A stretch of DNA of 57,072 bases from Candidatus Omnitrophota bacterium (GTDB lineage: Bacteria; Omnitrophota; Gorgyraeia; Zapsychrales; Fredricksoniimonadaceae): assembly GCA_016201795.1 (NCBI GenBank), contig JACQCF010000022.1:1-57072 (forward strand), given 5' to 3'. This document shows, piece after piece, positions 11,232-52,648 of this stretch. Both the position numbers and the translations under genes were made by a program. A model generated the notes under the pieces. That model did no database searches. It was given only the letters and a program-made list of their open reading frames with translations, and was not told the origin of the DNA. Positions within the stretch are counted from its first letter, which is position 1; each line of letters opens with the position of its first letter.

Positions 11232-12950
11232 TTATGGAACATAAGTGTCAGAAAATCTTAATCCCGAGTCATGCTCAGGATTTTTTGTGACGAGGGACCT
11301 TTTAAAAATAATCACCCCATGATTATTCGCCCAGCCGGGTTCGGCTTGCCAGTTACCCCCGTAATGATAGATGGGTCTGAAATTCTGCAGGATGTACTGA
11401 TAGAGGAGCGGGCAATAGGTTTTGCCGAAAACTCCTAAGCCGATTTCGTGGGAAGCGATGCGGTTGGAAACCAAAATATAATTGACCTTGTTTTTCTCAA
11501 GTTCTCGAATAACGGAGATTTCCTGCTGGGGCGGAATTTTGATGTGATCAAAAAAGATGAGCTGCCTGGTAGGGCTGGGGCGTGCGGTGAGGTAATAATA
11601 CAGGCAGTCATAGGGCAGGGCAAAAAAGAGCTCATCTTTTTGAAGGTTTTGGTTCAAGTAGGCCGTCACGGTATTGACGGTGTTCACCCATGCTTTTTCG
11701 TTGCCCACATAAATTTGTCCGCGGGGCATGTTAAGGAATTTATCAGGAGTACAAGAATTTTTAAGGACGACAAATGCGATGATGGTCCAGATCGTCAAGA
11801 GTCCAATCCAAATGCCGCCAATCGTGTAACGCAGCCATCGAGGCGCAAAGGCCACGGCTGTTGAAATCATCAAGAAACTAAAAAATAAACCAAACGGCAT
11901 AGACCAAAATGTGCGGTACCAAACTCCGCTCACGACAAATTCGTGGAAGTTAAGCACAAAAAAAGACCATAGGATCATCTGCGCCAGCCAAAACTTTCGA
12001 CGGTGTTCATTAAATTTTTTCGAAAAAGAAAGAACGAATCCAGCCACCGTGGAGCCGTGAATGATCGGATGAGTCAGGAAATTTAAAATCACCACCACGC
12101 TTATCCATAAGACCAAAGGGTTAAGGAAAACCGATGGCCGTCTTAAAAGCGGAGGTATTAAATTTTTAAGATTAAGCCAGTGATGATCAAACGTCAGCCA
12201 GTGCTGCATGAGATAATAGGGAATGGTTTCCCAGGGGGTTCTGTGATGCGGCTGATCGTCGCCGAAATAGGCCAGACACTGGTGAACTTCATAGCTGGTT
12301 AAATCTTTAAGTAAAAAGCCATAAAGGGCAAGCCACAGCACGGGCACCATCAGGATGCCGCAGACATAAAAAGATTTTTTTTTGGTCATATCACTGGTGG
12401 CAATGCCCAAAAGAGTGACCATTAAAGCGGTAATACCGAAATTAATTTTAATAAGCCCGATGATAAAACAGCAGGCCAATGCCCAAAATCCCAGCCGCAA
12501 TTTTTTTTCGTCGATATACCTTAAGAGAAGCCAGAAAACCGCCAGGGTCAGGGTGAGTGCGCCGATATGATTGTAGGTGAAGAAGAAGTCCTGCTGCGTC
12601 TGCAAAAAGTAATAGGAAGCTAAAAACGCCCAGGACGCAGGCATGAGGACACCAGCGGCCAAATAAAAGAAGACACCGCCGAGAATATTAAGGATGAATT
12701 TTCCCAGCAAGATGCTGGTGATTTTAAAGCCGAAGATCAAATAAAACAGGCCGTAATAATACGGCATCAGCGGCCCATAGACCCACCAGATATCTTTGTA
12801 AATAAGTTTGCCGTGCAAGACCTGTTCAAACGTGTAAAGATCGCGGCCGTGATCACCCTGGGCAAGATTGTCCTGGAAGCCCAGATGCGGTCCGCCGAAG
12901 AGGATGGCGGCAAAAACAGTTAGCAGGAGAAAGGTTTTTTTAGAAGACAT
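11232..12950 (-). CDS. Polytopic membrane glycosyltransferase (GT-C, ArnT/PMT-like)
   Basis: More than 10 hydrophobic segments; first loop DHGRDLY...G.LIYKDIWWVYGPL typical of GT-C membrane transferases; soluble C-terminal domain. Confidence 0.7.
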   Translation of the reverse strand: MSSKKTFLLLTVFAAILFGGPHLGFQDNLAQGDHGRDLYTFEQVLHGKLIYKDIWWVYGPLMPYYYGLFYLIFGFKITSILLGKFILNILGGVFFYLAAGVLMPASWAFLASYYFLQTQQDFFFTYNHIGALTLTLAVFWLLLRYIDEKKLRLGFWALACCFIIGLIKINFGITALMVTLLGIATSDMTKKKSFYVCGILMVPVLWLALYGFLLKDLTSYEVHQCLAYFGDDQPHHRTPWETIPYYLMQHWLTFDHHWLNLKNLIPPLLRRPSVFLNPLVLWISVVVILNFLTHPIIHGSTVAGFVLSFSKKFNEHRRKFWLAQMILWSFFVLNFHEFVVSGVWYRTFWSMPFGLFFSFLMISTAVAFAPRWLRYTIGGIWIGLLTIWTIIAFVVLKNSCTPDKFLNMPRGQIYVGNEKAWVNTVNTVTAYLNQNLQKDELFFALPYDCLYYYLTARPSPTRQLIFFDHIKIPPQQEISVIRELEKNKVNYILVSNRIASHEIGLGVFGKTYCPLLYQYILQNFRPIYHYGGNWQAEPGWANNHGVIIFKRSLVTKNPEHDSGLRFSDTYVP

Positions 12951-17653: not shown

Positions 17654-18616
17654 ATGCGACGAACAGGGTCTATTTTTATTTTGACCTTTTTGGGCTGGCA
17701 GGTAAGTTCTCTGGCGCAGATGGATTTGTCGGTGGCTGCCAGTTTGTCCCCTGCGGTGGTGGGCCAATCGATTGGACAAAGGACCGCAGAGGCGACATCC
17801 GATGACACGCCTCAGTGGCGATTGACGTTGGGCGTGATTGAAGCCGAGGCCCGGGTATTGATGAGAAAAAATGCCCGGCTGGTGGCGGAAAATGATTTTT
17901 TGACTCGAGAATATAACAAATTACAGGATGAGCTCAGCTGGCGGCAGAAAAAAAACAAAGCCTTGCCAGAATCGTCGAAGAAAAGCAATGGTCCGATGGA
18001 TCAGCAGAGGCGTATCGATGAATTGAGGGATCAAATAAACACCAAAAAAGTTGAGGTTTCCCGACTAAAACAAGAATTGGCCAAACTGCCAAAAAAAGGA
18101 TCTCATAGGCAGCAGCAGGCTTCCTTGGAGCCCGACCAGCAGTTGAATCAGCAGTTAAAGCAAGAGAAAGATCAAGAGGATTTTCTGCAGAAGCAATTGG
18201 CGGATTTAAAACAAGATCAGCCTATCGTAGGGGAAGGCCAGTTTAAATCTTTAAAGGCTCAATTAAAGGCGTTGCAAAAGCAAAAAGAACAGTTACAGAA
18301 GAAAGTTGCCGTCGGTGACAGTCAGACCAAGGGGGGGCTCTATGGTCAGCTGAGTTTAAAGAAGATGGTGCTGGAAGACAAGATTCAGAAATTTGAAGTG
18401 CAGTTAACTCATCTGAGAAAAGCGTCGGCGTTGAAGTTCTCCTGGAGCCAGGAGAGAAAACAATTGATTCACCAGATGACTCAAGCTGATAGCCACAACA
18501 TACGGCTGCACCGGCAAGTTGAACACTTGCGCGAAAATATTGCGCTTTTAAAAAATCAGGTGGCCATCCTGGAGTATCGAAAAGATTCCAACGATGGCTC
18601 TGACCATACAAAATAG
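17654..18616 (+). CDS. Secreted coiled-coil protein of unknown function
   Basis: Signal-peptide-like N-terminus followed by long K/Q/E/L-rich heptad sequence. Confidence 0.7.
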   Translation: MRRTGSIFILTFLGWQVSSLAQMDLSVAASLSPAVVGQSIGQRTAEATSDDTPQWRLTLGVIEAEARVLMRKNARLVAENDFLTREYNKLQDELSWRQKKNKALPESSKKSNGPMDQQRRIDELRDQINTKKVEVSRLKQELAKLPKKGSHRQQQASLEPDQQLNQQLKQEKDQEDFLQKQLADLKQDQPIVGEGQFKSLKAQLKALQKQKEQLQKKVAVGDSQTKGGLYGQLSLKKMVLEDKIQKFEVQLTHLRKASALKFSWSQERKQLIHQMTQADSHNIRLHRQVEHLRENIALLKNQVAILEYRKDSNDGSDHTK

Positions 18617-18972: not shown

Positions 18973-20139
18973 ATGCGCATTTCCAAAAAAGTAGACGCTT
19001 TAGCCCCGTCGGGTATCAGGGCTTTTTTTGATTTAGTCTTAGGCATGAAGGATGTTATCTCCTTGGGGGTGGGAGAGCCCGACTTTGTCACACCCTGGCA
19101 TGTGCGTGAGCGCGCCATCCAATCCCTCGAGCAGGGTTTTACCTCATACACCTCCAACAAAGGCATGGTCGAGCTGCGCCAGGAAATTGCGGCGTTTCTC
19201 AAAAACCGTCACGACCTATCCTATGATCCAGAGGAAGAAACGCTCATTACCGTCGGTGTCAGCGAAGGGCTGGATTTGGCCATGCGGGCGATCATTAACA
19301 GCGGTGATAAAATTTTAATTCCCGAACCTTCTTATGTGGCTTACGGGCCGGTGGCGGAATTAGCTGGCGGCATACCCGTATTTTTACCCACGTCCATTGA
19401 AACCGGTTTTAAAATCACTCCTGAGCTCATTGAGTCGGCGATCACTAAACAGGTGAAGGGTCTTTTGCTTAATTACCCTTCCAATCCCACGGGAGTTTCT
19501 TATTCGAGAAAAGAGCTGGAGGCCATTGCCAACGTCGTCAAAAAGCACAATTTGATTCTTATTAGCGACGAGATTTATGATGAGTTAACTTATGATTTCG
19601 ATCATACACCGATGGCCACTTTACCTGACATGAAACAGCGGGTGGTGTATCTTAACGGTCTCTCTAAATCTTACGCCATGACGGGTTTCCGCATCGGATA
19701 TGTCTGCGGCCCTAAAGATATCGTGGGGGCCATGACCAAAATTCATCAGTACACCATATTGTGCGCTCCCATCACAGGACAGATGGCGGCCATTGAAGCG
19801 TTGAAAAACAGCGTTAAAGATATCGCGGCGATGAAAAAAGAGTATGCCAGGCGGCGCGATTTTATCGTGGAAGCGTTAAATCAGATAGGACTCGAGTGTC
19901 ATAAGCCGCAAGGGGCTTTTTATGTGTTTCCTTCTGTGAAATCCACGGGGGAAAGCTCGATGGATTTTGCCAAACATTTGCTGGGGCAGCAAAAAGTGGC
20001 GCTGGTGCCGGGAGTGGCTTTTGGTCGCTGTTGCGCGGATCATGTGCGTATTTCGTACGCCTCCAGTTATGAGAATTTACAGGAGGCGGTGGCCCGTATT
20101 CAAATCTATCTGAAGAATAGAAAGCGGAGGTTATCTTGA
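18973..20139 (+). CDS. Class I/II PLP aminotransferase (AlaT/YugH-like)
   Basis: SLGVGEPDF, NYPSNPTG, SDEIY, NGLSKSYAMTGFRIG. Confidence 0.92.
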   Translation: MRISKKVDALAPSGIRAFFDLVLGMKDVISLGVGEPDFVTPWHVRERAIQSLEQGFTSYTSNKGMVELRQEIAAFLKNRHDLSYDPEEETLITVGVSEGLDLAMRAIINSGDKILIPEPSYVAYGPVAELAGGIPVFLPTSIETGFKITPELIESAITKQVKGLLLNYPSNPTGVSYSRKELEAIANVVKKHNLILISDEIYDELTYDFDHTPMATLPDMKQRVVYLNGLSKSYAMTGFRIGYVCGPKDIVGAMTKIHQYTILCAPITGQMAAIEALKNSVKDIAAMKKEYARRRDFIVEALNQIGLECHKPQGAFYVFPSVKSTGESSMDFAKHLLGQQKVALVPGVAFGRCCADHVRISYASSYENLQEAVARIQIYLKNRKRRLS

Positions 20140-20549
20140 GAAAAGAACATGCGCCTAAAGTATGCCGCAAAAGAGATGACGTTGAATTTGAAATCGCCTT
20201 TTACGAGAATATTCTTAAAGAAACGCCTGATTTTATCGAAGCCCTCATGGCCATAGGGGAGTTGTATACCAGAGCCGGTTTTTGGCAAAAAGGCCTTGAA
20301 GTGGATTTAAAGCTCACCCGCTTGCGTCCCGACGACGCGATTATTTTTTACAATTTAGCCTGTTCTTACGCGCTTTTAAATCAAACGCGCTTAAGTTTAT
20401 CCTCTATCTCGAAGGCTATTGAGTTTGGTTACCATGATTTCAAACATCTGCACCAGGACCCTGATCTGGAAAATTTGCTCAAAGACGAACAGGTGCAGGA
20501 ATTTTTAGCGCAGATCGAAAAAAAAAGAAAAACATCGAAGAAATTTTAA
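20136..20549 (+). CDS. TPR-like helical protein
   Basis: ALMAIGELY, YNLACSYAL, AIEFGY, D.D...L pattern; start uncertain. Confidence 0.7.
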   Translation: MRKEHAPKVCRKRDDVEFEIAFYENILKETPDFIEALMAIGELYTRAGFWQKGLEVDLKLTRLRPDDAIIFYNLACSYALLNQTRLSLSSISKAIEFGYHDFKHLHQDPDLENLLKDEQVQEFLAQIEKKRKTSKKF

Positions 20550-20559
20550 AAACAAGTCT

Positions 20560-23346
20560 ATGTTCCAAAGAACTTTTCTTGGTGCTTTGTTGTTTTGTTG
20601 CGCTGCCTCCTTAGCAGCGGCGGGTGAGCTGCCGCGTTATCAGATTCAAGCCACACTCGACACTGCTTTAAAAACAATCACCGCCACCCAAAGGGTGACC
20701 TTCACCAACAATACCAGCCAGCCGATGAGTGATGTGTATTTTCATGTTTATTCCAACCGCCAGTACACGCCGCTGGAGCGCTCCTTTATGCTGCGTTATG
20801 CCAGTTATTTTAAGGTGGATCCGCCGCCGCATTTTACCGAGAATCATTTTAAAATTTCTCGTCTCCAAGTCGATGCGCTCGATGCGAGTTTTTCTTTTGA
20901 GGGTAAAGATCAAACTCTTTTGAGAATTCCTTTGAAGACGCCGCTGGCTGCCGGAGCCAGCACGACGGTTGCCATGGATTTTACCTTAACGGTGCCGCAT
21001 AGCTTCGGCCGCTTCGGCTGGTATCAGGACATTATGGCCTTGGCCCGCTGGTATCCGATCCTTTCGGTATGGGGGCCGCAGGGCTGGGACCAAAGCCCGT
21101 TTTATCCTTTTCACCGTCCGTTTTTTTCTGATGCTTCCCTCTATACGGTGGATGTCACCGTGCCGGCTGCCAATACCGTGATTCACTCCGGAGATTTAAT
21201 CAATGAAACCATCGACGGAAATAACAAAAAACTTCATATCGAAACACCAAAACCTATCCGTGAGTTTGCGATGGCCATAAGCCCGTCTTATCACGCTTAC
21301 GAAGCAGACAAGGACGGTATTACCTTCAAGGCTTATTATCTAGACGGTAACATCGATCACGCGAAATTGGCGGTTAAAGATGCCCAGGATTTAATGGCCT
21401 ATTACACCAAACGTTTCGGGCCGTATCCCTACAGGACTTTTAGCATCGCGCCGGTTCATTTGGCTTATGGCGGTGAGCAAATGTCGAACATGATTTTTAT
21501 CGACACGCGGGTTTTTGAATTACCCCGATTCCTGGATCGTTATTTTGATTTTCTGGTGGCCCACGAAACCGGCCATCAATGGTTTTACAATCTCATCGGG
21601 GTTGACGATTACACGCAGATGTGGCTGGAGGAAGGTATCAATTCTTATTTTTTAATGGAGTACATTTCCGATAAATATGGTCCTGATGCGAAAATTGTTG
21701 AGCTGCCTCCATGGGCCAAAATTTTAGTGCCAGAGCTTTCCTTTCGACGGGCGCAGGATGTGCGTTATAAAATGTCCACCCGTTTTGGTTTTGAGCAGCC
21801 GGTCATTGACAAACTTTCCAGTTTTAAAGAACCCAGCAGTATTTTTACCTTCACTTACGGCAAAGGCTCCAGGGTTCTGCAGATGCTCAAATACCTCGTC
21901 GGGAATGAGGCGTTTGAACGCATCTTCCGGAAGATTTTTGAGCAATACAGTTTTAAAAATCTGGATATTGAAGATTTCAAGCGTATTGCCCAAGAAGAAA
22001 GTTCTAAAGACCTGACAGGCTTTTTTGAGCAATGGCTTTATACGATCAAGACTCTAGATGTCAGGGTTGAGCGTATCAAAGGCCGTTCGATTTTTGTATC
22101 CCGTCGAGGCATTTCAATGCCGACCGATGTTGATATTCATTATAAAGATGGCAGCCAGGATCATATGATCTGGAGGGGGGTGCGTGAAAAGGATATTTTA
22201 ACAGCCCCCTTGGATAAACCTATTTCTTTGGTGACGCTGGATCCCAACAAAGAGCTTTTGGATATTGATCGTGTCAATAACAGCCTGCCGCGCAAAATTC
22301 ATATGAAATTCGTGCCGCTGTATCATGGGCTGTACGACATTCCGGTCTTTTTACCCGACGATGGCTATAACTGGGTCACCGGGCCTACGATTGCCGACGG
22401 CATAGGTATGAAGACATCTTTTCAAAAGCCTTATGACTACAATGTTTACGCCCAAAGCGGCTATAATCCCAATAACAAGTTTCAAATCACTCGCGAAGGC
22501 ATCGAGATTAAAAATATTTTGCATTCCCAGACGACTTTTGGGGTGGAGGCCATGCAGAGAGTGGATGATGACAATGGCGAAGATGATCTCAACAGTCAAA
22601 AAGTTTATCTGCGTCGGGAATTGTGGCCGGCGCCCTACAGCCTGACGGATATCAATGATCATATGACGTTGTACGCTATTCGTAATCGTACTCCCAGCGG
22701 CTCTTTCTTCTCGTCAGAAAGTATCCGTAACACCTCTTACCTTAAGCACAATGAGGCTATCATCGGGACGGTTTTGCATTTAGACCGCGCCGGGCCGCAT
22801 CCGGATATGCGTCAAGGTTATGTGGCGGATCTTTTGGTGGAAAATTCCGGCCATTGGGCAGGGGCCACGCAGACCTTTACCCGGGCCAGTATCGATACCA
22901 GTTTTTATCATCCGGTTATTGGAGAAAGTAAGATGGCGTATCGGCTTAAATATGGATGGGGATCTTCCGACGACAAGAATTTATTTGAACTGGGAGGGCC
23001 TGAAGGTTTACGCGGCTTTGACCGCAAAACCATTCGGGGAGCCAATGCGCTTTTGGGCAGTACGGAATATCGTTTCCCCTTACTCGATAACCTTCATCTG
23101 AATACTTATGACCATGCGCTGACTTTAAATAAAATCTCCGGCGTGGTGTTTTTTGATGCCGGACGGGCATGGTATGATCATTATGAGGACACGCATTTTC
23201 ACAAAGATGTCGGTGCCGGCCTGCGTTTTCATGTGAGCATTGGCTCATTCTTGGAAAATGTCATGGTACGTTTGGATGTGGCGCATGCCATCGCCGAGAG
23301 CAAACAAGACACTCATGCGTGGATGGGGATCGACCAGGCGTTTTAA
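20560..23346 (+). CDS. M1-family zinc metallopeptidase fused to a C-terminal Omp85-family beta-barrel
   Basis: Signal peptide; HETGHQWF...WLEEG and distal YGKG (M1); C-terminal [35 protein letters not shown] and terminal Phe (Omp85 barrel). Confidence 0.85.
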
Positions 23347-27852: not shown

Positions 27853-27962
27853 AAATCCATACCTTTGACTATATATCTTATGCTTGACTTTTACTACGGC
27901 ACATGTTAAAAAAACATGTGTTTTTTAATGCAAATTTTATTATTTTTGTTACATTTTAATTG

Positions 27963-28985
27963 ATGGCAAAAACCATAGGCCTAACATATGATTTAAAATC
28001 CGACTGGGTCAAACATGACGACGATCCACCGGATGCCGCCGCCGAGCTCGATGGGCTAGATACCATTAAAACACTTACGAGGGCTTTTGAAAGCGCAGGC
28101 CATCAGGTTGTGCGTATTGGCAATGCCCGCCAGCTGCTGGTCGCCATTGAAAAAGGTCTGAGCGTCGATATGGTGTTTAATATTGCTGAAGGTTATCGCG
28201 GCCGCAACCGCGAAAGCCAGGTGCCCAATATTTTAGAGATGTTTGATATTCCTTTTTGTGGGGCCGATGCGCTCACGTTGGGTATCACCCTTGATAAAGC
28301 CGTGACTAAAAAATGCTGGATAGCCGACGGGGTGCCTACACCCAAGTTTTTCGAAGCCACCCTGTGGGATGATTTAAAGAAACTCAATACCATCGGTTAT
28401 CCTTTGATGGTCAAAACTTCCCAGGAAGGCACCTCCAAAGGCATTACCAAAAATTCCCGTGTCGAGGATTTAGAACAGCTCCAAAGAGAAGTGGAGAGAA
28501 TTTCTACCTTCTATAAACAGGCGGCATTGTGCGAACAATTTATCAGAGGAACAGAATTTACGGTGGCCGTCATCGGCAACGAAGAACCCATTGCCTTGGC
28601 GGTGGTACAATACGCCATGGACGGTGATACGAATATCGGCAATAAGTTTTATACCTATGAGCATGTTGTTAACAAAAGCGTACAGTATCTTTGTCCGGCG
28701 CCGATTGAGGACGGCCTTACTCAAAAACTGCAGCAGATAGCCGTTGCCGCTTACAAGTCCGTTGAATGCCGTGATTTCGGTCGGGTGGATTTTCGCGTGG
28801 ATGAGAAGGGTCGGCCCTTTGCGTTGGAAATTAATCCCTTGCCGAATTTAGGCATGCTGGAAGTCTTCCCCATGTGTGCCAAAGCCCGTGGGATAACATA
28901 CAATCAGTTAATGAACCAAATCCTTGACCATGCTCTGGAGCGCTACGGGCTTCTGGAGCCACAGGAGGTCCTTTCCCGATCATGA
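27963..28985 (+). CDS. D-Ala--D-Ala-ligase-like ATP-grasp enzyme
   Basis: FNIAEG..GRNRESQVP..LE, LDK..TK, EGTSKGI, EQFI.G.EFTV, RVDFR, LEINPLP. Confidence 0.88.
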   Translation: MAKTIGLTYDLKSDWVKHDDDPPDAAAELDGLDTIKTLTRAFESAGHQVVRIGNARQLLVAIEKGLSVDMVFNIAEGYRGRNRESQVPNILEMFDIPFCGADALTLGITLDKAVTKKCWIADGVPTPKFFEATLWDDLKKLNTIGYPLMVKTSQEGTSKGITKNSRVEDLEQLQREVERISTFYKQAALCEQFIRGTEFTVAVIGNEEPIALAVVQYAMDGDTNIGNKFYTYEHVVNKSVQYLCPAPIEDGLTQKLQQIAVAAYKSVECRDFGRVDFRVDEKGRPFALEINPLPNLGMLEVFPMCAKARGITYNQLMNQILDHALERYGLLEPQEVLSRS

Positions 28986-30169
28986 AGACCAGCGCGCTCT
29001 CTATAGATCAAACGTTTTCTGATCAATTCTCACGCCCTAACATACCTTTGTCAGCACAAGAAGAACGCATTTTAGCCTTTTATCCGGGGGCGACTCATGC
29101 CGATTGGGAAGACTGGCGCTGGCAAATCCGCAACCGCATCCGCACCTTAGAGTCGATTCTCAAAATCATGACATTGACCCCTCAAGAAGAGCGCGGGGTT
29201 ATTGGTGCCGGGGATAAATTGACGATGTCGATTCCGCCGTATTTTGCGGCCTTGATTGACTCCGACGATGTTGGCTGTCCGATTCGTTTGCAGTCGGTGC
29301 CACAGGAATATGAGTTTGAAACCGCCCCTGAGGAAATGCGTGATCCGTGCGGGGAAGACAAAGATTCCGTCGTGCACGGGCTGGTGCACCGTTATCCGGA
29401 CCGTGTTTTGTTTCTGGTCAATGAAATGTGCGCCATGTACTGCCGTTATTGCACGCGTTCGCGCATGGTCGGCGACGGCAATCATACGCTTAATACCTCC
29501 ACTTATGATGCAGCGCTCAATTACATTCGCCAACACAAAGAAGTTCGCGACGTGCTTATTTCCGGCGGAGACCCGCTGACCTTGGGCGACCGCATGCTGG
29601 AGTACATTATTTCCTCGGTCAAAGCCATTGCGCACGTGGAATTCGTGCGCATCGGCACGCGCATTCCGGTGACTTTGCCCCAGCGCGTCACTCCGGAACT
29701 GTTGGCCATGTTTAAGAAATATTCGCCGATTTGGATGAGCATTCATTTTAACCACGCCAAAGAAGTAACCCCCAGGGTCAAGCACGCCTGTAACATGATC
29801 GCCGATGCCGGTATCCCCATGGGTTCTCAGACCGTGCTCTTGCGCGGGGTCAATGATAGCTCAGAGGTGATGAAGAAACTTTTCCATGAACTTTTGAAAA
29901 TCCGCGTGAGGCCCTATTACATTTATCAATGCGACCCTATCATCGGTAGCCGGCATTTCCGCACCAGCGTTGAGACGGGTATTAACATCATGCAAAACTT
30001 GCGCGGCCACACCACCGGCTACGCGGTGCCTACCTATGTCATCGACGGCCCCGGCGGCGGCGGAAAAATCCCCATCGGGCCCGAATACGTCGTCTCCCAC
30101 GCCAACGGCCGCTATGTATTGAAGAATTTCGCCGGCGAGCTCTACACCTACGTAGACCCCACCTATTAA
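28982..30169 (+). CDS. KamA-family radical SAM protein (lysine 2,3-aminomutase-like)
   Basis: HRYPDRVL, CAMYCRYCTR, SGGDPL, NQ/SQTVLLRGVND, GGGGKIP PLP-lysine motif. Confidence 0.92.
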   Translation: MKTSALSIDQTFSDQFSRPNIPLSAQEERILAFYPGATHADWEDWRWQIRNRIRTLESILKIMTLTPQEERGVIGAGDKLTMSIPPYFAALIDSDDVGCPIRLQSVPQEYEFETAPEEMRDPCGEDKDSVVHGLVHRYPDRVLFLVNEMCAMYCRYCTRSRMVGDGNHTLNTSTYDAALNYIRQHKEVRDVLISGGDPLTLGDRMLEYIISSVKAIAHVEFVRIGTRIPVTLPQRVTPELLAMFKKYSPIWMSIHFNHAKEVTPRVKHACNMIADAGIPMGSQTVLLRGVNDSSEVMKKLFHELLKIRVRPYYIYQCDPIIGSRHFRTSVETGINIMQNLRGHTTGYAVPTYVIDGPGGGGKIPIGPEYVVSHANGRYVLKNFAGELYTYVDPTY

Positions 30170-35752: not shown

Positions 35753-37000
35753 ATGTTATTTCGTGAAAAATTCATCCTCAGCGTCATGATCATCGTCGCT
35801 TATGTATTGATGGTTGACCAGACCACGCCCTGGGGGAATCGTTTTTGGGAAGCGTATATTGGTAACGGTGCCCGCTATGCGGTGATGCAAAAAGGCAAGG
35901 TGGGTTATATCAACGGACGCGGTCGTCTGATTATTCCCATCTCTTATAACGACGGTGCGCGTTATTCTCACCAGGGGCTGATTTTGGTTAAATCAGGCAA
36001 CCTCTGGGGGTTTATAGATCACGACGGGCAAATGGTCATTGCGGCCCAATACAGTTGGGCCAAAGACTTTTCTGATGGGTTGGCCGTGGTGTCCCGCAAA
36101 TACCCCAAAAAATTCCTTCCCTTTTACGGCTTTATTAATGAAAAAGGCGATGAGGTGATCCCTCTGCAATACATGCAAGCCAGAAGTTTCACCTCGGACG
36201 GTCTGGCGGCGGTTAAAAAGGATTTACGGTGGGGTTATATTAATACTCACGGCGATTTGTTGATTACCCCTGTTTATGAAGAGACCGGTGATTTCCATCA
36301 AAACATGGCCGCCGTTAAACAAAATGGGAAATGGGGCTATATCAATTTTGCCGGCCGCATGATGATTTCACTGCAGTTTGATGAGGCAGGTGATTTCTCC
36401 GACGGGATTGCCCCTGTCAAACACAACGGCCTTTGGGGATATATCGGCCTTGATGGGCGCTTTGTTGTACTACCTTCCTATAGAGAAGCTCACGCTTTGT
36501 CCGAGGGCCTGGGCCTGGTCAAAGGCTACAATCAAATTGGATTTGTGGATAAGAAAGGGGAGATTGTTTTTCACAGAGCGGATTGGTTTGAAGCCAGGGA
36601 TTTCTATGACGGTTTGGCGGCGGTTAAGGTAAGCTCTAAAGTCAAAAGGCGCTCTGTCGGCCGATGGGGTTATATGGACACCCAAGGCCGTTTTGTCATT
36701 GCCCCGCAATTCGATTGGGCCTGGGAATTTAACGGCGGCCTGGCGCGCGTGGGGTTTGAGAAAAACGATATCCGACGGGGCTATGTCAATAAAGGTGGGC
36801 ATATGATCTGGGATCCGGCCGACTGGCAGCAGAGCACGTATTTTCGTCAAAGTGTTTTGATGGCGATAGGGTTAGGGTTTTTGTTTTATGTGTTTTATCT
36901 TCTGAATTATTTACGCCAGCGAAAACATTCAAAAAGCACAACCCCCACCAGCCAGACATCCCCCGCTAAGCCTAGCGGGAATTCATCTGCTGTTGCATGA
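35753..37000 (+). CDS. WG (KWG) repeat protein with hydrophobic segments at both ends
   Basis: Repeated K.GKWGYI/GFID..G...I...Y..A..F..GLA units. Confidence 0.88.
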   Translation: MLFREKFILSVMIIVAYVLMVDQTTPWGNRFWEAYIGNGARYAVMQKGKVGYINGRGRLIIPISYNDGARYSHQGLILVKSGNLWGFIDHDGQMVIAAQYSWAKDFSDGLAVVSRKYPKKFLPFYGFINEKGDEVIPLQYMQARSFTSDGLAAVKKDLRWGYINTHGDLLITPVYEETGDFHQNMAAVKQNGKWGYINFAGRMMISLQFDEAGDFSDGIAPVKHNGLWGYIGLDGRFVVLPSYREAHALSEGLGLVKGYNQIGFVDKKGEIVFHRADWFEARDFYDGLAAVKVSSKVKRRSVGRWGYMDTQGRFVIAPQFDWAWEFNGGLARVGFEKNDIRRGYVNKGGHMIWDPADWQQSTYFRQSVLMAIGLGFLFYVFYLLNYLRQRKHSKSTTPTSQTSPAKPSGNSSAVA

Positions 37001-38831: not shown

Positions 38832-41610
38832 ATGAATTCTAAGACCTTTTATCAATATCACAGCGACGGAGTGACTTTCAGTTCCCCGCAGGCCGCAGGC
38901 ATTAAAATTATTTACGCGCCCCTATGCGGCGCGGATGCCAACGGCATTAAATCCGCCATCAGCCCCTCTTTAAGCGGGGATATCAAAATTGACAAATACC
39001 ATTACCTCACCAAACCCGTCTCGAGGGAAGATTTGCGTTATCCTGTACGGGAATTTTTTGTCTTTATTAAAGGTAAAGGGGGTTTTTTCATTGGCTCAAG
39101 AAAGTACGCCGGATTCAAGCAAGGTGACCATCGGGCCTTTGTGGCATAAGCTGGAACGCACGCACAAGGACGCTGGCATTGAACTGGGCGCAGTGAATTT
39201 TGTGCCTTGCAGCAATGAAACCGTTGAGCTCATGAAGGTGAGTGTCAAAAATATTTCCCGGCGTTCCATCAGATTTACTCCGACGGCAGCCATTCCTATT
39301 TTTGGGCGCTCTTTGGCCAACAAGCATGACCATGAACATGTCACGGCTTTATTAAATCGCCTGGAACAGGTCAAGGACGGCGTGCTCCTCAAACCCACGA
39401 TGGCCTTTAACGAAGAAGGGCATAAGGACGCCAGCACGGTTTATTTTGTTTTTGGCCGTCAGGACAAGACCACGGCTTTGGCGGGGACTTTTCCGACGAC
39501 AGAAAGTTTCTATGGCGAGGGTGGCTCTCTGATGAGTCCTGAGGCGGTTATGAAAAATCTTGAGCCTGCGATCTTGCCCCCATCAGAGCTCCAGGGCAAA
39601 GAAGCCATCGGGGCTTTGCGTTTTAAAGAAATCACCTTAAAGCCGCATACAAGCGCGGATTATATCATCGCCGTTGGTATGGCTTCCCACCATCAGCAGG
39701 CTAAAGATATCTTCAGCCGTTTTGACAGCCTTGAGGCTTTTGAGCGCGCCCTTTCGGCCAACAAGAAGTTCTGGCTGGATAAAATATCATCGATCCAATT
39801 TAGAAGCCACGATGAGGATTTCAACTGCTGGATGCGCTGGGTGACGCTGCAGCCTATTCTTCGTCGGATTTTTGGCTGTTCGTTTTTGCCGGATCATGAT
39901 TACGGCAAAGGCGGCAAAGGCTGGCGGGATCTCTGGCAGGATTTGCTTTCTTTAATTCTCATTGAACCGCATCTGGTGCAGGAACATCTGCTCAACAATT
40001 GCGCCGGCATTCGCATCGACGGTAGCAACGCCACCATTATCGGCACCAGGCCCACAGAATTTATGGCGGATCGCAATGCTATCACCCGCGTATGGATGGA
40101 TCACGGCGCCTGGCCTCTGTTAACGGTTTTGCTTTACATCGACCAGACCGGCGATTTCGATCTTCTACTACAGAAGCAGACTTATTTTAAAGACCCGCAG
40201 CTCTCCCGCACCATGGATAAGGACCTGGGATGGATCAGTCAGTACGGCAATCATCTGTTGGATAAAAAAGGCCAAGTCTATGAAGGCACACTCCTCGAGC
40301 ATCTTCTGGTGCAGAATCTGGTGCAATTTTTTAATGTGGGCGAGCATAATATCACCCGTCTGGAAAGCGCCGACTGGAATGACGGGCTGGATATGGCTTT
40401 TGCCCGCGGCGAGAGCGTGGCGTTTATGTCCTTTTACGGCGGCAATCTTTTGAAGCTGGCGGATTTGATGGAGACTTTAGGCAAACTGAAAGGGCAAACC
40501 ACCATCCGTTTGGCCAAAGAGCTTTTGATTTTGCTGGATACCTTAAACGCTGGGCCAGTCAATTACGATCACGCCAAAGACAAACGTGATCATCTTTTCG
40601 GTAAATATTTTCATAGCGTCCAGCCGGTTTTAAGCGGGGAGGTGGTGGAGGCGGCTATCAGCGAGGTGGCTCGCGATTTGCGCCAGAAAGGCCACTGGAT
40701 GTTCGGTCAAATCCGCCATCAGGAAAAAATCACCGTCGAGCATGACGGCCAAAAATATCAATGGTTTAACGGCTACTATGACAATAAAGGCGAACGCGTC
40801 GATGGTATCAAGGACAATGTGGTGCGCATGACCTTGACCGGCCAGGTCTTTGCCCTCATGAGCGGCATGGCCGATTCCAAAGAAATCGAAACCGTGATTA
40901 TAAGCGTCGATCATTTTTTAAAAGACAAGAAGCTCGGCGGCTATCGGCTCAATACGGATTTTGGGCTCAAGCATTATTTGGATTTAGGCCGCGCGTTTAG
41001 TTTTGCTTTCGGTACCAAGGAAAACGGTGCGTTTTTTAATCACATGACGGTTATGTACGCTTACGCGCTCTACACGCGCGGCTTTGGCCGTCAGGGTTAT
41101 GAAGTTTTACAGTCGATTTACCGCATGGCCCTCGATACTTGGCGCAGTAAAATTTATCCCGGGATTCCGGAATATTTCGACTCCGATGGGCGCGGGATGT
41201 ATCATTATTTGACCGGCTCCGCCAGCTGGCTGGTGTTAACCGGACTGACTCAAGCCTTTGGCGTACGCGGTCTAGACGGTGATTTGCTGTTAGCCCCGCA
41301 GTTAGTCAAAGAAGAATTCAATAGCAAAGCCCTTGCCAGTGTCATCTGTCCGTTTGCCGGGCGGCGCGTGACGGTGGAATATCATAATCCCAAAAAACTT
41401 GATGCCGGCCAGTACAGCATACAGCAAGTAAGTCTTAACGGGTGTCCGATCGTCGGTAAATTGCTTAACAAAGCCTCTGTCAAAATTGAACGCTCCTTGA
41501 TTACCGCCACCCCAGAGGCGCACATCCGCGTGGTGCTGGATGCTTACAAAGTCAATCCCGCCAAAGGCAGAACTCAAGATAAGATGGACCTCGTCATGGT
41601 GGGAGGTTAA
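38832..41610 (+). pseudogene. GH94-like glycoside phosphorylase interrupted by a single frameshift near 39078-39088
   Basis: ORF 38832 and ORF 38989 join across G5T6; RDLWQD, DHG.WP, ADWNDGLD, ENG..F.H, YLTGSASW motifs; real pseudogene, slippage or assembly error cannot be told apart. Confidence 0.7.
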
Positions 41611-47125: not shown

Positions 47126-47971
47126 ATGGGTTATTACAAGCTTTTGGGATTAGACAAAGAACCGTTCTCGACCAGTCCGGATCCGGAATTTTTTTATCAA
47201 TCCAAAGAACATCGAGCCGCCCTTTACCGCCTGAGAGTCGCCGTTGATTTAAAACGGGGCTTAAGCCTTGTTTTAGGGGATGTGGGCACAGGCAAAACAA
47301 CCTTAAGCCGCAAATTATCCCAATTGTTGATGCAGGAGCAGGATTTGATCATGGCGGTGATACTCAACCCGGTGTATGAATCCGAGGCGCAATTTTTGGC
47401 GGATTTAATGGAGAGATTCCACATTCCTTTTCACGGCGAAGGCACAGCAGCGGCGAGCGTTTTGGATTATATGAAAGTCATTGAGAAATTTCTTTTCGAA
47501 AAAGGGGTGGAGGAAAATAAAACCATCGTGCTTTTGATAGACGAATCCCAAAAAATGACTGTCGGCTGCCTGGAGGTGCTGCGCTCTTTGTTGAATTATG
47601 AAACCAATGAATACAAAATCTTACAGTTGATTTTGATGGCCCAGAAAGAACTGCTTCCGCGTATCAGCCAGATTAAAAATCTTTGGGATAGAATCGCTTT
47701 GAAATATGTCCTCAATCCCCTGGAAGAAAATGAAGTGAAAGATTTGATCACCTTCCGCCTCACCCAGGCCGGGTATGTGTCTCGCAGCCCTTTGTTTAGC
47801 GACAGCGCGATACGCACCATTTATAACCGCACGCAGGGGTATCCCAGAAAAATCGCCATGCTCTGCCACGATGCTCTGGAATATCTGGTGATGTATAAAA
47901 GACAAATGGTGGACAAAGAGGTGATACAGGCGTTAATTCAGAAGGAAATTCAACCGACGGTTTTGATATGA
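47126..47971 (+). CDS. ExeA/GspA-like AAA ATPase
   Basis: L..EPFS.SPDP.FFY, GDVGTGKTT, LLIDE, G.PR.I; no peptidoglycan-binding tail. Confidence 0.88.
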   Translation: MGYYKLLGLDKEPFSTSPDPEFFYQSKEHRAALYRLRVAVDLKRGLSLVLGDVGTGKTTLSRKLSQLLMQEQDLIMAVILNPVYESEAQFLADLMERFHIPFHGEGTAAASVLDYMKVIEKFLFEKGVEENKTIVLLIDESQKMTVGCLEVLRSLLNYETNEYKILQLILMAQKELLPRISQIKNLWDRIALKYVLNPLEENEVKDLITFRLTQAGYVSRSPLFSDSAIRTIYNRTQGYPRKIAMLCHDALEYLVMYKRQMVDKEVIQALIQKEIQPTVLI

Positions 47972-48615
47972 TTTCCCCCGAAGAAAGGTTATTTGATGCC
48001 ATTCAGGAAGGCAAGAAATACCCTGCGGGGAAAAAAATAAATCCTGCGCAGGGCTTAAAGAGTTTTTTAGAGGGCTTGACCTTCAAGTGGCGGCCAAGTG
48101 ATTTGGCCGCGGGCGGGCAGAGGATCAATCTGGCAGCCGTCACTAAAATTCTTTTTATTATTTTGGTCGCGCTTATAATGCTGGTATTTTATAATGTTAC
48201 CAGACAGAGGCCGAGTTTATCAAAATTAACTGCTGGCGTTTCTACGGGTGGCGCTCAGTTGCCCGGCCCTAAACCCATCGAGGAGTTTAATCCGGTGACC
48301 GTTTATTTAGACGAGGCAAAAAAAAGAGATCTCTTTCATCCGATTCCGCCTCCTGCACCGCCTACGCCGGTGGTGTCCCTTAAGGAGAAAGTCAAGCCGG
48401 CGGCGACTGCGGTTGACCTTCGCGCGCTCATCAAAAATTTAACTTTGTCCGGTATCTATCAGGGTCAGGATGTTGAGGTGATGGTTGAGGATAAAACCAC
48501 CAAGAAAACATATTTTTTAAAACAGGGGGATGAAGTCAAGGGAATGAAAGTCAAGGCCATCCTCAAAGACAGAGTCATCCTGCAGTTAGGCACACAGGAA
48601 ATCGAGCTTTTATGA
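47968..48615 (+). CDS. GspC/PilP-like inner-membrane assembly protein
   Basis: Single TM, Pro-rich linker, RDLF, L.L.GI.....VMVED......FLKQGD.V.G..V..I. Confidence 0.65.
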   Translation: MISPEERLFDAIQEGKKYPAGKKINPAQGLKSFLEGLTFKWRPSDLAAGGQRINLAAVTKILFIILVALIMLVFYNVTRQRPSLSKLTAGVSTGGAQLPGPKPIEEFNPVTVYLDEAKKRDLFHPIPPPAPPTPVVSLKEKVKPAATAVDLRALIKNLTLSGIYQGQDVEVMVEDKTTKKTYFLKQGDEVKGMKVKAILKDRVILQLGTQEIELL

Positions 48616-50234
48616 AAAGCGTGTCAAATAAATCATGTGTCATTGCGAACGCAGTGAAGCAATCTTTTAAAAGATCGCCACGTCCCCTTCGGGGACTCGC
48701 GATGACGCTTATTTTTTGTCTGTTTTTCTTAAGTGGTCTTTCGTTTGGTTTTGCCCAACAGAAACCGCAGCCGATACCCATTCAGGAAGGCCTCACTCAG
48801 CGCATCGCTTTGGATTTGCGCGACATGGATATTATCGACGCGTTAAAATTTTTGGCTATGAAGGCCGGGATTAATATCATCGCCGCCAAAGACGTGTCCG
48901 GGCGGGTGTCGCTTTTCTTAAAAGGGGTGACCACACAGGATGCCCTGACCATCATCCTTCAGGCCAACAGCCTGGCCTATGAAATCCGCCGGGATGTGCT
49001 TTACGTGATGACCGAGAAAGAATACAAAGCGATTCATGGCAGTAATTTCAGCGACACGCGCAAAGTGAAGATTTTAAATTTAAAATATGCCAAACCCGAA
49101 GCGGTGTTTAAGGCGGTGGATACGCTCAAAAGCGACATCGGCAAAGTGATGGTGGATGAAGAATCCGGCGCCGTGATTTTAATGGACACCCCCGAGAGAA
49201 TAAGCGAAATGGAAAAAGCCGTTGCTGATTTAGACCAGGTAACCCTGACCAAGACATTTATTCTGCAGTACGCCAAGGCCAAAGACCTGGAACCTATTCT
49301 GGCCAAAAGGCTGGATGCCAAGAAAACCGGAACCGTGGCGGTGGATGAGCGCAGCGACCAGTTAATCGTGACCGCGTTCCCCGACCGCATGCAGGAAATC
49401 GAAGATCTCATCAGAAGCATGGACAAAAAGACCAAACAGGTCTTGATCGAAGCCCGCATTCTCAAGGTTATCCTCAATGATAATTTCAGCATGGGAGTGG
49501 ATTGGAACAGGGTCTGGACCGAAGCCAAGCTCAAAGGCCTGAATTTTACGGGAGTTTTCCCGCTGGCACCTGCGCCCACCAATTTTCTTAGAATCGGCGC
49601 GGGCAATGACGCGGCCACCGGCTTCAATTACTCTGCTGTTGTCCAGATACTGAAAGAATTCGGCGAGACACACAACCTTTCCTCGCCGAGCATTGCGGTT
49701 ATCAACGGCCAGGAGGCCAAGATGCTGGTGGGTACCACCCAGCCCTACGTGACGACCACGGTCGCCGCCGGCACCGTAACCGCCACCACCGCCGCCCAGG
49801 TGTCTTTTGTGGATGTGGGTGTGCAGTTGACCTTGACGCCGTTTATCAATAATGACGGTTATGTGACCATAAAAATCAAGCCGGAGATTTCCACTGTTGA
49901 CCAACCTTTTACCTATTCACTCGCCCCAGGGGTAAACAACACGGTTCCTATAGTGTCGAAAACCACGGCGGAGACGACCGTCATGATTAAAGACGGCAGG
50001 ACCGTTATTATCGGCGGTTTAAGAAAAGATGACAAAGTAAAGACGGTCAATAAAGTACCTGTGTTGGGAGATATTCCTTTTTTGGGCGTGGCGTTTAGAA
50101 ATACGGTCAATACCATGGAAAAAACGGAAGTGGTGGTTTTTATCACGCCGCATATCATCAGCGGTGGTGATGACAGTGGTGCAACGGTCGATGCGAGTCA
50201 GCTTAAGCCTAGAGGCATGAGATCCTATGAGTAA
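48612..50234 (+). CDS. Secretin (GspD/PilQ family)
   Basis: N0-like domain, two Secretin_N repeats, QVLIEARI, P......GQEA, DVGVQL.LTP, GGL, KVP.LGDIP.LG..F. Confidence 0.92.
   Translation: MKSVSNKSCVIANAVKQSFKRSPRPLRGLAMTLIFCLFFLSGLSFGFAQQKPQPIPIQEGLTQRIALDLRDMDIIDALKFLAMKAGINIIAAKDVSGRVSLFLKGVTTQDALTIILQANSLAYEIRRDVLYVMTEKEYKAIHGSNFSDTRKVKILNLKYAKPEAVFKAVDTLKSDIGKVMVDEESGAVILMDTPERISEMEKAVADLDQVTLTKTFILQYAKAKDLEPILAKRLDAKKTGTVAVDERSDQLIVTAFPDRMQEIEDLIRSMDKKTKQVLIEARILKVILNDNFSMGVDWNRVWTEAKLKGLNFTGVFPLAPAPTNFLRIGAGNDAATGFNYSAVVQILKEFGETHNLSSPSIAVINGQEAKMLVGTTQPYVTTTVAAGTVTATTAAQVSFVDVGVQLTLTPFINNDGYVTIKIKPEISTVDQPFTYSLAPGVNNTVPIVSKTTAETTVMIKDGRTVIIGGLRKDDKVKTVNKVPVLGDIPFLGVAFRNTVNTMEKTEVVVFITPHIISGGDDSGATVDASQLKPRGMRSYE
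48638..48706. repeat. Palindromic MITE/RPE-like element, copy 3, inside the secretin 5' end
   Basis: tgtcattgcga...gaagcaatc...gatcgccac...tcgcgatgac; read as VIANAVKQSFKRSPRPLRGLAMT. Confidence 0.85.
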
Positions 50235-51323: not shown

Positions 51324-51353
51324 CTGGCTTTGGCGCTCAGAAATGAGGCAAGT

Positions 51354-52403
51354 GTGAATTCGTTTATACGAGACAGTATTGACTTGCCGCTTGGCACGGT
51401 ATGGTTAATGAATGCTATTTCAGAATACAAGGGCAAACAGGATCTATATGCGCGGCAATCACCACAGATTTTAAAAAATTTGCTAGAAATCGCCCTTATA
51501 GAAAGCGTAGAATCATCTAACCGTATTGAAGGTGTTACGGTCGATAAGGATCGTCTGAAACCTTTGATCATTGGCAATACCAAGCCGCGTGATCGTTCTG
51601 AGGAGGAAGTGGCCGGCTATCGTAAAGCTCTCGATTGGATTCACAAGAAGTATGAAAGCTTGCGGATCACACCTGATACTATTAAACAGCTTCATCGGTT
51701 TTGCCGCGGAGAATCTTGGGACGCGGGCAAGTTCAAAGAAAAAGACAATGATATTATCCGTAAACATCCAGACGGCCGCGTTGAAGTCGTTTTTAAACCG
51801 GTCAGCGCGCAAAAAACTCCAGAGATGATCGAACAGTTATGTTTGACATATGAAAACGGTTTGGCTCAGTTAAAATATCCGCCTCTTTATGCGGTTGCCT
51901 GTCTGGTTCTTGATTTTTTAAGCATTCACCCCTTTAGGGATGGTAACGGCAGGGTATCACGCCTGTTGACGTTGCTTGCTTTGTACCAACAGGGCTTTGT
52001 GGTTGGCAAATATATCAGTCTTGAGCGAATTATTGAACAGTCAAAGGAAAGCTACTATGAAACACTCAATAAAAGTTCTCAAAGATGGCATGAAGCCGAA
52101 CATAATGGGATGGCGTGGTTTAATTATTTTTTAGGGACAGTTTTGAGTGCATATAAAGAATTTGAAGAACGCGCTGGCAACCTTAAGCCAACCCGGGGCA
52201 TAAAAACGGAAATTGTGGAGTCGGCGATTAATAGACAATTTAGTGAATTTAGTATGTCCGACATTGAAAAAGAATGCCCGAATGTAAGCCGTCCTATGAT
52301 CCGTGTGGTACTGGAGGATTTAAGGGCCAAAGGGAAAGTAGAGGTTTTAGGCATTGGCCGCAGTGCCCGCTGGCGTAAACGTGATAATAGCCGTAAAACG
52401 TGA
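51354..52403 (+). CDS. Fic-domain protein with N-terminal inhibitory motif and C-terminal winged helix
   Basis: HPFRDGNGRVSR, SSNRIEG; probable GTG start 51354 after GAGG (track starts at TTG 51330). Confidence 0.92.
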   Translation: MNSFIRDSIDLPLGTVWLMNAISEYKGKQDLYARQSPQILKNLLEIALIESVESSNRIEGVTVDKDRLKPLIIGNTKPRDRSEEEVAGYRKALDWIHKKYESLRITPDTIKQLHRFCRGESWDAGKFKEKDNDIIRKHPDGRVEVVFKPVSAQKTPEMIEQLCLTYENGLAQLKYPPLYAVACLVLDFLSIHPFRDGNGRVSRLLTLLALYQQGFVVGKYISLERIIEQSKESYYETLNKSSQRWHEAEHNGMAWFNYFLGTVLSAYKEFEERAGNLKPTRGIKTEIVESAINRQFSEFSMSDIEKECPNVSRPMIRVVLEDLRAKGKVEVLGIGRSARWRKRDNSRKT

Positions 52404-52420
52404 TAATAAACGTGATAATA
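52377..52420 (+). repeat. Three copies of AAACGTGATAATA across the Fic stop codon
   Basis: Copies at 52377, 52396 and 52408. Confidence 0.8.
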
Positions 52421-52648
52421 GCAGCGTTTTACTTAGGGTACTTTATATGTCCAGGCGAAATTAATACCATTGACTCATAATTAGATATTACCCGTTAGGC
52501 TGGGAAGATTGAAGAACTACAAGAACTGGCAAAACCGTGAAAAACGTGTATACTCATTAATGAAGCCTCCGCTATACCATAATATAGACCCAGGCGGGAG
52601 TGTGAGGCTGACAACCGGCAGTTTAAAAGGCAAGGGGATTTAAATTAT

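Follow-up and report, generated by a model that had tools for sequence, protein, structure and literature searches.

A conserved family of Omnitrophota proteins that joins an M1 peptidase module to an Omp85-type outer-membrane barrel

Results

The stretch of DNA analysed here, referred to as the window, comprises 57,072 nucleotides (positions 1 to 57,072, forward strand) of contig JACQCF010000022.1 from a Candidatus Omnitrophota bacterium (assembly GCA_016201795.1). It is an ordinary diderm chromosomal stretch with almost all genes on the forward strand, and its gene content includes pyrimidine and purine synthesis, GlmS, SecA, RF, Era, MnmE and a secretin. One of its genes encodes, in a single protein, a Sec signal peptide, an M1-type zinc peptidase module and a C-terminal Omp85-type outer-membrane beta-barrel (hereafter the fusion protein; Table 1). 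A sequence-only reading of this DNA, made by a model, had singled out this gene as a candidate self-exporting outer-membrane protease. The reading-frame coordinates and motif positions that it gave were exact, with H335 encoded at nucleotide 21562 and F809-F820 at nucleotides 22984-23019. Each of the motifs (WLEEG, YGKG, GGEQMSN in place of GAMEN, EYRFPL, FFDAG, GAGLRF, RLDVA and the terminal Phe, F928) was found, and almost every one is invariant in an alignment of 32 homologues of 47-80% identity. Residues called invariant below are so in this alignment, which was also the one supplied to AlphaFold2.

In Pfam, the fusion protein matches Peptidase_M1 (PF01433; residues 329-492, E=1.3e-23, 84 bits against a cut-off of 27.7) and Omp85 (PF01103; residues 687-897, E=1.5e-11, 44.8 bits against a cut-off of 24). 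The ShlB/TpsB model PF03865 stays under its cut-off (E=0.0022, 18 bits against 22.7). Among NCBIfam models, PepN (aminopeptidase N) and LTA4H match partially over residues 195-499, and Omp85_fam and BamA match the C-terminus, the BamA model TIGR03303 scoring 28.9 bits against a cut-off of 297. Sequence matches in the PDB are all M1 aminopeptidases, with E-values down to 2e-13. Together with the AlphaFold2 model, the Pfam and NCBIfam matches confirmed, far beyond chance, the signal peptide, the catalytically complete M1 module and the Omp85 barrel that had been read from the sequence. At the N-terminus the homologues are variable in sequence and hydrophobic in all 32 cases. Anchoring as a lipoprotein was considered and rejected, there being no canonical lipobox (LLFC|C, with Phe at position -1).

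The full-length AlphaFold2 model is a single chain of mean predicted local distance difference test score (pLDDT) 84.9 and predicted template modelling score (pTM) 0.87. It lays out the N-terminal helix, a beta domain, the catalytic domain, a beta sandwich and the linker within the limits given in Table 1, followed by 16 strands between residues 603 and 925. When the model was searched with Foldseek, about 580-640 columns aligned to ERAP1, IRAP, ERAP2 and tricorn factor F3, covering M1 domains I-III. The least conserved folded part is the beta sandwich of residues 499-560 (mean conservation 0.48), the equivalent of domain III. The helical domain IV of M1 enzymes is absent from the model, and the beta-barrel comes directly after domain III; that the barrel occupies the position of domain IV is a statement about order along the chain and not about superposed coordinates. 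Many shorter M1 relatives likewise have no domain IV.

Within the zinc site, H335, E336, H339, W355, E357, E358 and G359 are invariant, as are Y433, G434, K435 and G436 around the catalytic tyrosine. Since the residues of HExxH-x18-E and YGKG do not vary, zinc binding and catalysis of the M1 module look intact. The exopeptidase motif GxMEN is replaced in the family by GGEQMSN, of which G305, E306, Q307, M308 and N310 are invariant. HMMER pairs E306 with the amine-binding GAMEN glutamate at the cost of a one-residue gap, whereas an ungapped alignment to closer relatives carrying GGNE[ST]SN places Q307 at the position of that glutamate and E306 one residue before it. A Glu-to-Gln change at the GxMEN glutamate cripples aminopeptidase activity in the M1 enzymes that have been studied. 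In one distant M1-barrel relative (P0172) the HExxH motif is lost (LLLARQLARAWW) and the architecture is kept. This relative may be a pseudo-peptidase, which hints at a possible binding or structural role for the M1 module.

Between the beta sandwich and the barrel lies a linker of 42 residues that is free of insertions and deletions and has a mean conservation of 0.73, on a par with the catalytic domain. It is still recognisable in relatives at ~27% identity. Its pLDDT is ~90 in the full-length model, compared with 45-82 when it is modelled without the peptidase. Because the linker is conserved and is modelled confidently only with the peptidase present, the predictions suggest a fixed interface rather than a flexible tether.

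The top 50 matches of the full-length fold search were all M1 proteins, and residues 561-928 were therefore modelled and searched separately (pLDDT 74, pTM 0.71). Sixteen barrel strands are present in both models. The best Foldseek matches of the barrel model are TamA of P. aeruginosa and E. coli (8us1, 4n74, 4c00; TMt 0.64-0.67 against barrel-only chains), followed by F. nucleatum BamA (9ccg), many further BamA structures and then CdiB, FhaC and Sam50, all with a probability of 1.00. A sequence profile of the barrel also matches 9ccg (E=5e-8) as well as TamA. The barrel thus belongs to the BamA/TamA class rather than to the TpsB class, and the expectation of a 16-stranded Omp85 fold, on which the sequence-only reading had staked its proposal, was borne out by the predicted structures. 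Positions G812, G813, G816, L817, R818 and G819 of loop 6 are at least 90% conserved, F864 and G868 of the FxDxG motif are invariant with D866 nearly so, and strand 16 carries a conserved Gly. No POTRA domain was found: Pfam and NCBIfam gave no match and the AlphaFold2 model contains no beta-alpha-alpha-beta-beta unit, residues 499-560 being all-beta. The impression gained by eye that POTRA is missing was therefore correct.

The two faces of the barrel differ in conservation. Periplasmic turns T1, T3 (13 residues), T4 (9 residues) and T7 are long and/or highly conserved (0.78-0.95). The extracellular loops other than L6 are short, with insertions and deletions in L1, L4 and L8; within the barrel, variability is greatest in L4, L7 and L8, and L5 is conserved (0.82). 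Mean conservation is 0.69 for the periplasmic turns and 0.60 for the extracellular loops. The mature homologues contain 0-4 cysteines per ~910 residues, none of them conserved.

The architecture is not a one-off. A homology search returned 304 clusters, and the 120 that were listed are all proteins of 910-1088 residues with both PF01433 and PF01103. Those to which a source gives a name appear either as "M1 family aminopeptidase" or as "BamA/TamA family outer membrane protein", from Candidatus Omnitrophota. A scan at one genome per species found 93 encoding loci, of which 80 were kept, with identities down to 38%. Nearly all of these loci come from Omnitrophota metagenome-assembled genomes; some are labelled "uncultured Planctomycetales" and one "Deltaproteobacteria". 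The survey across taxa that had been suggested at the outset thus yielded more than 300 clusters and at least 93 species genomes, nearly all of them of Omnitrophota, and a conserved family.

At greater distance, phmmer, run exhaustively against 1.84 billion representatives, found 960 proteins at E<=1e-30. Among the best 150 of these, at least 27 clusters are full-length fusions according to the barrel profile, down to 27-34% identity. About 25 more clusters, of 830-1040 residues, have the M1 module, the linker and an aromatic last residue, with a C-terminal part that the barrel profile misses; when five of them were run against Pfam, one gave a weak Omp85 match. These C-terminal regions often retain an LR(G/A/T)F-like motif and, judged by sequence, are probably divergent barrels. 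One such divergent group comes from Candidatus Latescibacterota and has a partial member that NCBI labels as BamA/TamA family. As to the taxonomy of the distant fusions, a profile built from 17 distant members retrieved 20 proteins, a number limited by the word index of the search, and of two cluster look-ups the only name obtained was that of a Latescibacterota cluster. The fusion protein is therefore a member of a large, old and uncharacterised family. A literature search found no publication on the M1-Omp85 architecture, although most subscription journals were outside its reach and this absence is not proof. The suggestion that the architecture was undescribed has held up to this extent, with the databases carrying the family under generic names.

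Other relatives share the M1 module only. Those of ~500 residues are stand-alone exported M1 modules without domain IV. In three proteins (P0306, P0307 and P0309) the same short-M1 clade is joined to ABC-2 type transporter permease domains in chains of ~1200 residues, which makes more than one joining of this M1 module to a membrane transport scaffold. The locus labelled "Deltaproteobacteria bacterium" (L074, 1276-4125) encodes a full-length homologue of 949 residues at 38% identity, with the motif YGGENSSS. Its contig is visibly richer in G+C, and an endonuclease III-like gene immediately precedes the homologue, an arrangement shared with the deeper Omnitrophota loci. Either the bin is mislabelled or this family member lies outside Omnitrophota.

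Directly upstream of the fusion gene is a gene for a small TPR protein (Table 1), and a YjbQ gene begins 5 nucleotides downstream. The order AsnC-aminotransferase-TPR-[fusion]-YjbQ-PfkB-Era is retained in relatives at 48-52% identity. This neighbourhood was considered as a clue to function and set aside, AsnC, the aminotransferase, YjbQ, PfkB, Era, endonuclease III and MgtE forming a conserved housekeeping block. A second association is of another kind. In related loci the fusion gene is preceded by a cassette made of a small TPR protein, an M48 peptidase with a five-helix Ste24-type N-domain and a PilZ membrane protein of ~670 residues. The last of these combines a PilZ domain and a single transmembrane segment with a long coiled coil and, at the C-terminus, a large alpha-rich domain that shows weak similarity to GH76. 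Of 83 related loci, 41 have the TPR gene directly or closely upstream of the fusion gene, and the M48 gene lies upstream in 23 and the PilZ gene in 33. The whole cassette, often with gene overlaps of 4 nucleotides, is kept at ~30% identity with entirely different outer flanks. It is informative because it alone outlasts the change of flanking genes. The M48 and PilZ genes are absent between positions 20549 and 20560 and throughout the 57-kb window; the lineage of the window keeps only the TPR and fusion genes, the M48 and PilZ genes having been lost or moved.

Table 1. Features of the fusion gene and of its neighbourhood (coordinates are those of the window unless a related locus is named)
Feature	Position	Strand	Remarks
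M1 peptidase-Omp85 fusion gene, complete	20560..23346	+	928 aa; ATG start; stop codon inside range; uninterrupted open reading frame
Sec signal peptide	20560..20625	+	residues 1-22; read from sequence; AlphaFold2 helix 2-20, low pLDDT; cleavage site putative
M1 domain I (N-terminal beta domain)	20635..21339	+	residues 26-260; AlphaFold2 secondary structure, Foldseek
M1 catalytic thermolysin-like domain II	21352..22038	+	residues 265-493; PF01433, PDB sequence matches, AlphaFold2 pLDDT mostly >90
GGEQMSN, family replacement of the GxMEN exopeptidase motif	21469..21489	+	residues 304-310; alignment
Zinc site HETGH and WLEEG	21562..21636	+	residues 335-339 and 355-359; HExxH-x18-E
YGKG with M1 catalytic tyrosine Y433	21856..21867	+	residues 433-436; aligned with Y-x-K-G of puromycin-sensitive aminopeptidase
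All-beta sandwich, equivalent of M1 domain III	22054..22239	+	residues 499-560; six predicted strands, no helices (AlphaFold2)
Conserved linker DPxxxLLDIDRxNNxxPR...VPLYxGLYDIPxFLPDD	22240..22365	+	residues 561-602, 42 aa
16-stranded Omp85-type beta-barrel	22366..23343	+	residues 603-928, 326 aa; ends in Phe (F928)
Loop 6 with Omp85 signature GLRGF	22963..23046	+	residues 802-829, signature 816-820; between predicted strands 11 and 12
FFDAG (FxDxG motif), strand 13	23149..23163	+	residues 864-868
Small TPR protein gene	20136..20549	+	ends 10 nt before the fusion gene; product of 137 aa without signal peptide; TPR matches weak
Cassette example, locus L001	4461-10835		
Cassette example, locus L003	6438-10838		
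Cassette example, locus L084	2439-8745		
Cassette example, locus L085	2452-8760		

Several other features of the window were recorded. Cumulative GC skew climbs steadily over most of it, and the only minus-strand open reading frame among those of at least 250 codons (11232-12950) encodes 572 residues and has no Pfam match at E<=1e-5. A protein of 320 residues (17654-18616, +) has a signal peptide and a long coiled coil rich in Gln, Lys and Glu and belongs to no Pfam family; a gene of similar size (339 residues, no Pfam match) lies at the syntenic position in locus L003. At 27960-30169 (+) an ATP-grasp gene of the D-Ala-D-Ala-ligase-like kind runs into the beginning of a radical SAM gene resembling lysine-2,3-aminomutase, a pair that suggests a pathway of the beta-lysine or elongation factor P (EF-P) modification type. 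A WG-containing beta-repeat protein (five stretches, E=9e-80) and a GH94-like glycoside phosphorylase of 873 residues are encoded in housekeeping surroundings at 35753-37000 and 38989-41610 (+). At 47126-50234 (+), a gene for an AAA_22 ATPase and, beyond a gap, one for a secretin with STN, Secretin_N and Secretin domains confirm a diderm envelope with an outer-membrane channel of the type II or type IV pilus-like kind. Finally, a Fic/DOC domain protein of 357 residues is encoded near a protein of 590 residues with an FGE-sulfatase (formylglycine-generating enzyme-like) domain (51330-54421, +).

Discussion

The fusion protein described here has the catalytic residues that define M1 peptidases and lacks both domain IV and the canonical GxMEN motif. 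Likewise, it has the barrel and the motifs of Omp85 proteins and lacks POTRA. As in the M1 aminopeptidases PepN, ERAP1/IRAP, tricorn F3 and LTA4H, domains I-III are followed in fold and the HExxH-x18-E site and the catalytic Tyr in YxKG are kept; unlike them, the protein has a barrel and no lid domain IV, carries the invariant GGEQMSN for GxMEN, and is exported rather than cytosolic. With TamA and BamA, which are its best structural matches, the barrel shares 16 strands, the (V/L)RG(F/Y) signature in L6, FxDxG on strand 13 and the C-terminal Phe. It differs from them in having no POTRA, shorter loops and unusually long and conserved T3 and T4 turns, and an insertase function is without support. 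TpsB proteins (FhaC/ShlB), in contrast, have two POTRA domains and an N-terminal plug helix; PF03865 stays under its cut-off here, and in the fold search TamA and BamA are placed ahead of FhaC and CdiB.

In function, the nearest known counterpart is the patatin-like Omp85 group of PlpD and FplA, formerly type Vd. In both cases a Sec signal peptide, an N-terminal hydrolase and a C-terminal 16-stranded BamA/TamA-related barrel are combined in one polypeptide, with the enzyme probably periplasmic and docked under the barrel. The hydrolase in our case is an M1 zinc peptidase (~540 residues, three domains) instead of a patatin phospholipase, its substrate is presumably peptide and not lipid, and where PlpD and FplA have a single POTRA there are a beta sandwich and the conserved 42-residue linker. 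In E. coli, BepA is an M48-TPR quality-control protease. In the placement favoured below, the fusion protein resembles it in being a zinc metallopeptidase at the periplasmic face of an Omp85 protein, and M48 and TPR genes occur in the ancestral cassette of the fusion; BepA, however, is a separate soluble protein of another peptidase family, whereas the M1 peptidase and its barrel form one chain and the M48 protein encoded nearby is of the integral membrane Ste24 type. A barrel without POTRA is also found in the noNterm Omp85 proteins (Heinz & Lithgow 2014; Leptospira LIC12252/54/58, PMC11358297), which have no N-terminal domain at all, compared with ~580 residues of enzyme and linker before strand 1 here. 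In the 'Omp85-Metallo' class a metal-dependent hydrolase likewise stands N-terminal to an Omp85 barrel, and the question whether it is periplasmic or exported is shared (Heinz & Lithgow 2014, PMC4104836). That hydrolase belongs to PF00149 and was found conserved at genus level only (PMC4104836), whereas the Peptidase_M1 fusions span a phylum. Identity with the "Metallo" class was rejected, the fusion protein having no PF00149 match in Pfam.

On an even balance of probability, we favour the explanation that the fusion is an outer-membrane-anchored, periplasm-facing zinc peptidase with a role in envelope protein or peptide turnover. According to this explanation the protein would be exported by Sec and its barrel then inserted into the outer membrane. 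The M1 module would remain in the periplasm, docked under the barrel, by analogy with PlpD, the one enzyme-Omp85 fusion that has been studied, whose patatin domain was shown experimentally to be exclusively periplasmic (Hanson et al., Nat Commun 2024, PMC11116518). Docked there, on the inner side of the outer membrane, the enzyme would act on peptides or on the ends of unfolded polypeptides, turnover of envelope proteins or peptides being its most likely role. Ancestrally it may have worked alongside an inner-membrane Ste24-type M48 protease and a periplasm-spanning membrane protein with a PilZ domain, which binds cyclic di-GMP (c-di-GMP). Several features point to this placement. By the standard Omp85 topology, in which L6 joins strand 11 to strand 12, the chain enters strand 1 from the periplasmic face, and this is where the M1 module is attached. 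The linker is conserved and rigidly modelled, the periplasmic turns are conserved and the extracellular loops are short, all of which argues for a periplasmic enzyme. So does the PilZ partner, which is predicted to project its long coiled coil and its large domain into the periplasm. The sequence-only reading had offered, as its second option, a peptidase "periplasmic beneath a pore"; the periplasmic part of this is close to what we favour, while the open pore finds no support.

A number of observations weigh against this explanation. The predicted placement of the M1 module under the barrel derives from strand order, conservation and analogy, and not from model coordinates or predicted aligned error. 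The contrast in conservation between turns and loops (0.69 against 0.60) is modest, and a near-absence of cysteine is likewise a common trait of passengers that traverse the outer membrane in an unfolded state. True aminopeptidase activity is uncertain because the GAMEN glutamate falls on Q307 or on E306 depending on the alignment, so that the canonical GxMEN Glu may be a Gln in this family. Much of the neighbourhood consists of conserved housekeeping genes. Neither the window nor many of the Omnitrophota loci have the M48 and PilZ genes, which shows that a functional link with them is not obligatory.

We regard it as rather improbable that the protein is a type V-like autotransporter, in which the barrel, probably with the help of BAM, would export the M1 module during assembly, to serve at the surface as an ecto-aminopeptidase breaking down peptides from the environment so that they can be taken up. 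Aquatic bacteria commonly show aminopeptidase activity associated with their cells, and there are secreted M1 enzymes, an example being the cold-active aminopeptidase 3cia among the PDB matches of the fusion protein. The mature protein is nearly free of cysteine, like the usual autotransporter passengers, the 42-residue linker is long enough to span a barrel, and an enzyme N-terminal to an Omp85 barrel is the arrangement of the original type Vd model (PMC6555100). That precedent has since been overturned, however, by the periplasmic location of the PlpD domain; no FplA was detected at the cell surface either (PMC11116518), and export of a globular domain by a folded Omp85 barrel was argued to be unlikely (Hanson et al. 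2024, PMC11116518). What is exported would here be a globular alpha/beta enzyme of 540 residues in three domains, unlike the beta-helical passengers that fold vectorially, and no helix or extended segment is predicted within the barrel. Very high conservation throughout and short extracellular loops are unusual for exposed surface enzymes. The description of the protein as "self-exporting, type Vd-like" has thus lost its ground: the enzyme of the PlpD model is periplasmic (PMC11116518), the fusion does not have even the single POTRA of PlpD, and its linker and turns are conserved and its extracellular loops short.

The remaining alternatives give the barrel an active part or dismiss the fusion altogether. 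In one, which we consider unlikely, the protein is a substrate-handling Omp85 machine whose barrel retains the capacity of BamA/TamA to bind polypeptides or thread them through a lateral seam or the lumen and whose peptidase, in place of POTRA and of domain IV, degrades them. Its clients would be stalled outer-membrane-protein intermediates, in a quality control like that of BepA at BAM, or imported extracellular peptides. The functional Omp85 motifs are indeed conserved (LRGF in L6, FFDAG, the strand 16 Gly and the terminal Phe), the barrel is of the BamA/TamA and not the TpsB class and comes after domain III, where the lid domain IV would sit, the ancestral operon has an M48 protease and a TPR protein, and fusion of the same M1 clade to ABC-2 permeases means that coupling to membrane transport recurs. 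Nothing indicates, however, that the barrel opens or conducts, and barrels of the PlpD type seem to have no working lateral gate (PMC11116518). The parallel with BepA is loose, the neighbouring M48 being a Ste24-type integral membrane protein and the TPR protein having no signal peptide, and M1 enzymes are normally exopeptidases of oligopeptides. One may speculate further that the barrel took over the role of the lid, so that its lumen or seam and the peptidase cleft form one continuous chamber of a trans-outer-membrane "thread and trim" device, which would pass polypeptides from the barrel, whether imported peptides or stalled membrane-protein intermediates, straight to the zinc site; we think this improbable to the same degree, and we would not rate any higher the corollary that the device was ancestrally one end of an envelope-spanning proteolytic system, controlled by c-di-GMP through PilZ, with the Ste24-type protease. 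It is very unlikely that the fusion is the BamA of its lineage, an essential outer-membrane-protein insertase in which the peptidase has replaced the POTRA domains. NCBI names some members "BamA/TamA family outer membrane protein", the family is phylum-wide and syntenic, and no other Omp85 gene was found in the 57-kb window or in the flanks of the 83 related loci. Yet 57 kb is far too short to infer that a canonical bamA is absent, as such a gene may be located anywhere beyond the window, the barrel, at 326 residues, is small and resembles that of TamA, POTRA is missing, and the score on TIGR03303 is far below its cut-off. To our knowledge, at least one POTRA is required for BamA function in every bacterium studied (see PMC4104836). 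An artefact of mis-assembly, or a frame-fusion of separate genes, can be dismissed as refuted: no point speaks for it, the linker is conserved without insertions or deletions, and over 300 independent clusters, drawn from many assemblies and in part from megabase contigs, show this architecture at full length.

The family is real and conserved and is catalogued generically, and no description or study of it was found in the literature. The individual protein is less exceptional than the sequence-only reading held, as its family is large and already catalogued and the analogy with secretion is weakened. A core rather than an accessory function is indicated by the more than 300 clusters, by the occurrence in at least 93 species genomes and by the conserved synteny.

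Omp85 proteins have long been credited with only two jobs, inserting proteins into the outer membrane and translocating partner proteins, to which PlpD added the carriage of a periplasmic enzyme. The M1-Omp85 family would be a second, independent example of an enzyme-carrying Omp85 protein, one concerned with peptide hydrolysis, without POTRA, and with a far wider and more conserved spread. If the enzyme were exposed at the surface, it would become a candidate source of the aminopeptidase activity, bound to cells, that is measured in aquatic and groundwater communities. If the "thread and trim" speculation were true, the family would constitute a new functional class of Omp85 proteins and, in Omnitrophota and uncultured phyla related to them, a core machine of the envelope. 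The family, which also has relatives elsewhere, runs through a whole candidate phylum whose bacteria are very small and may depend on hosts, and it offers a defined target for the study of how the Omp85 scaffold is repurposed, of M1 catalysis without a lid, and of protein and peptide turnover at the outer membrane of uncultured diderms.

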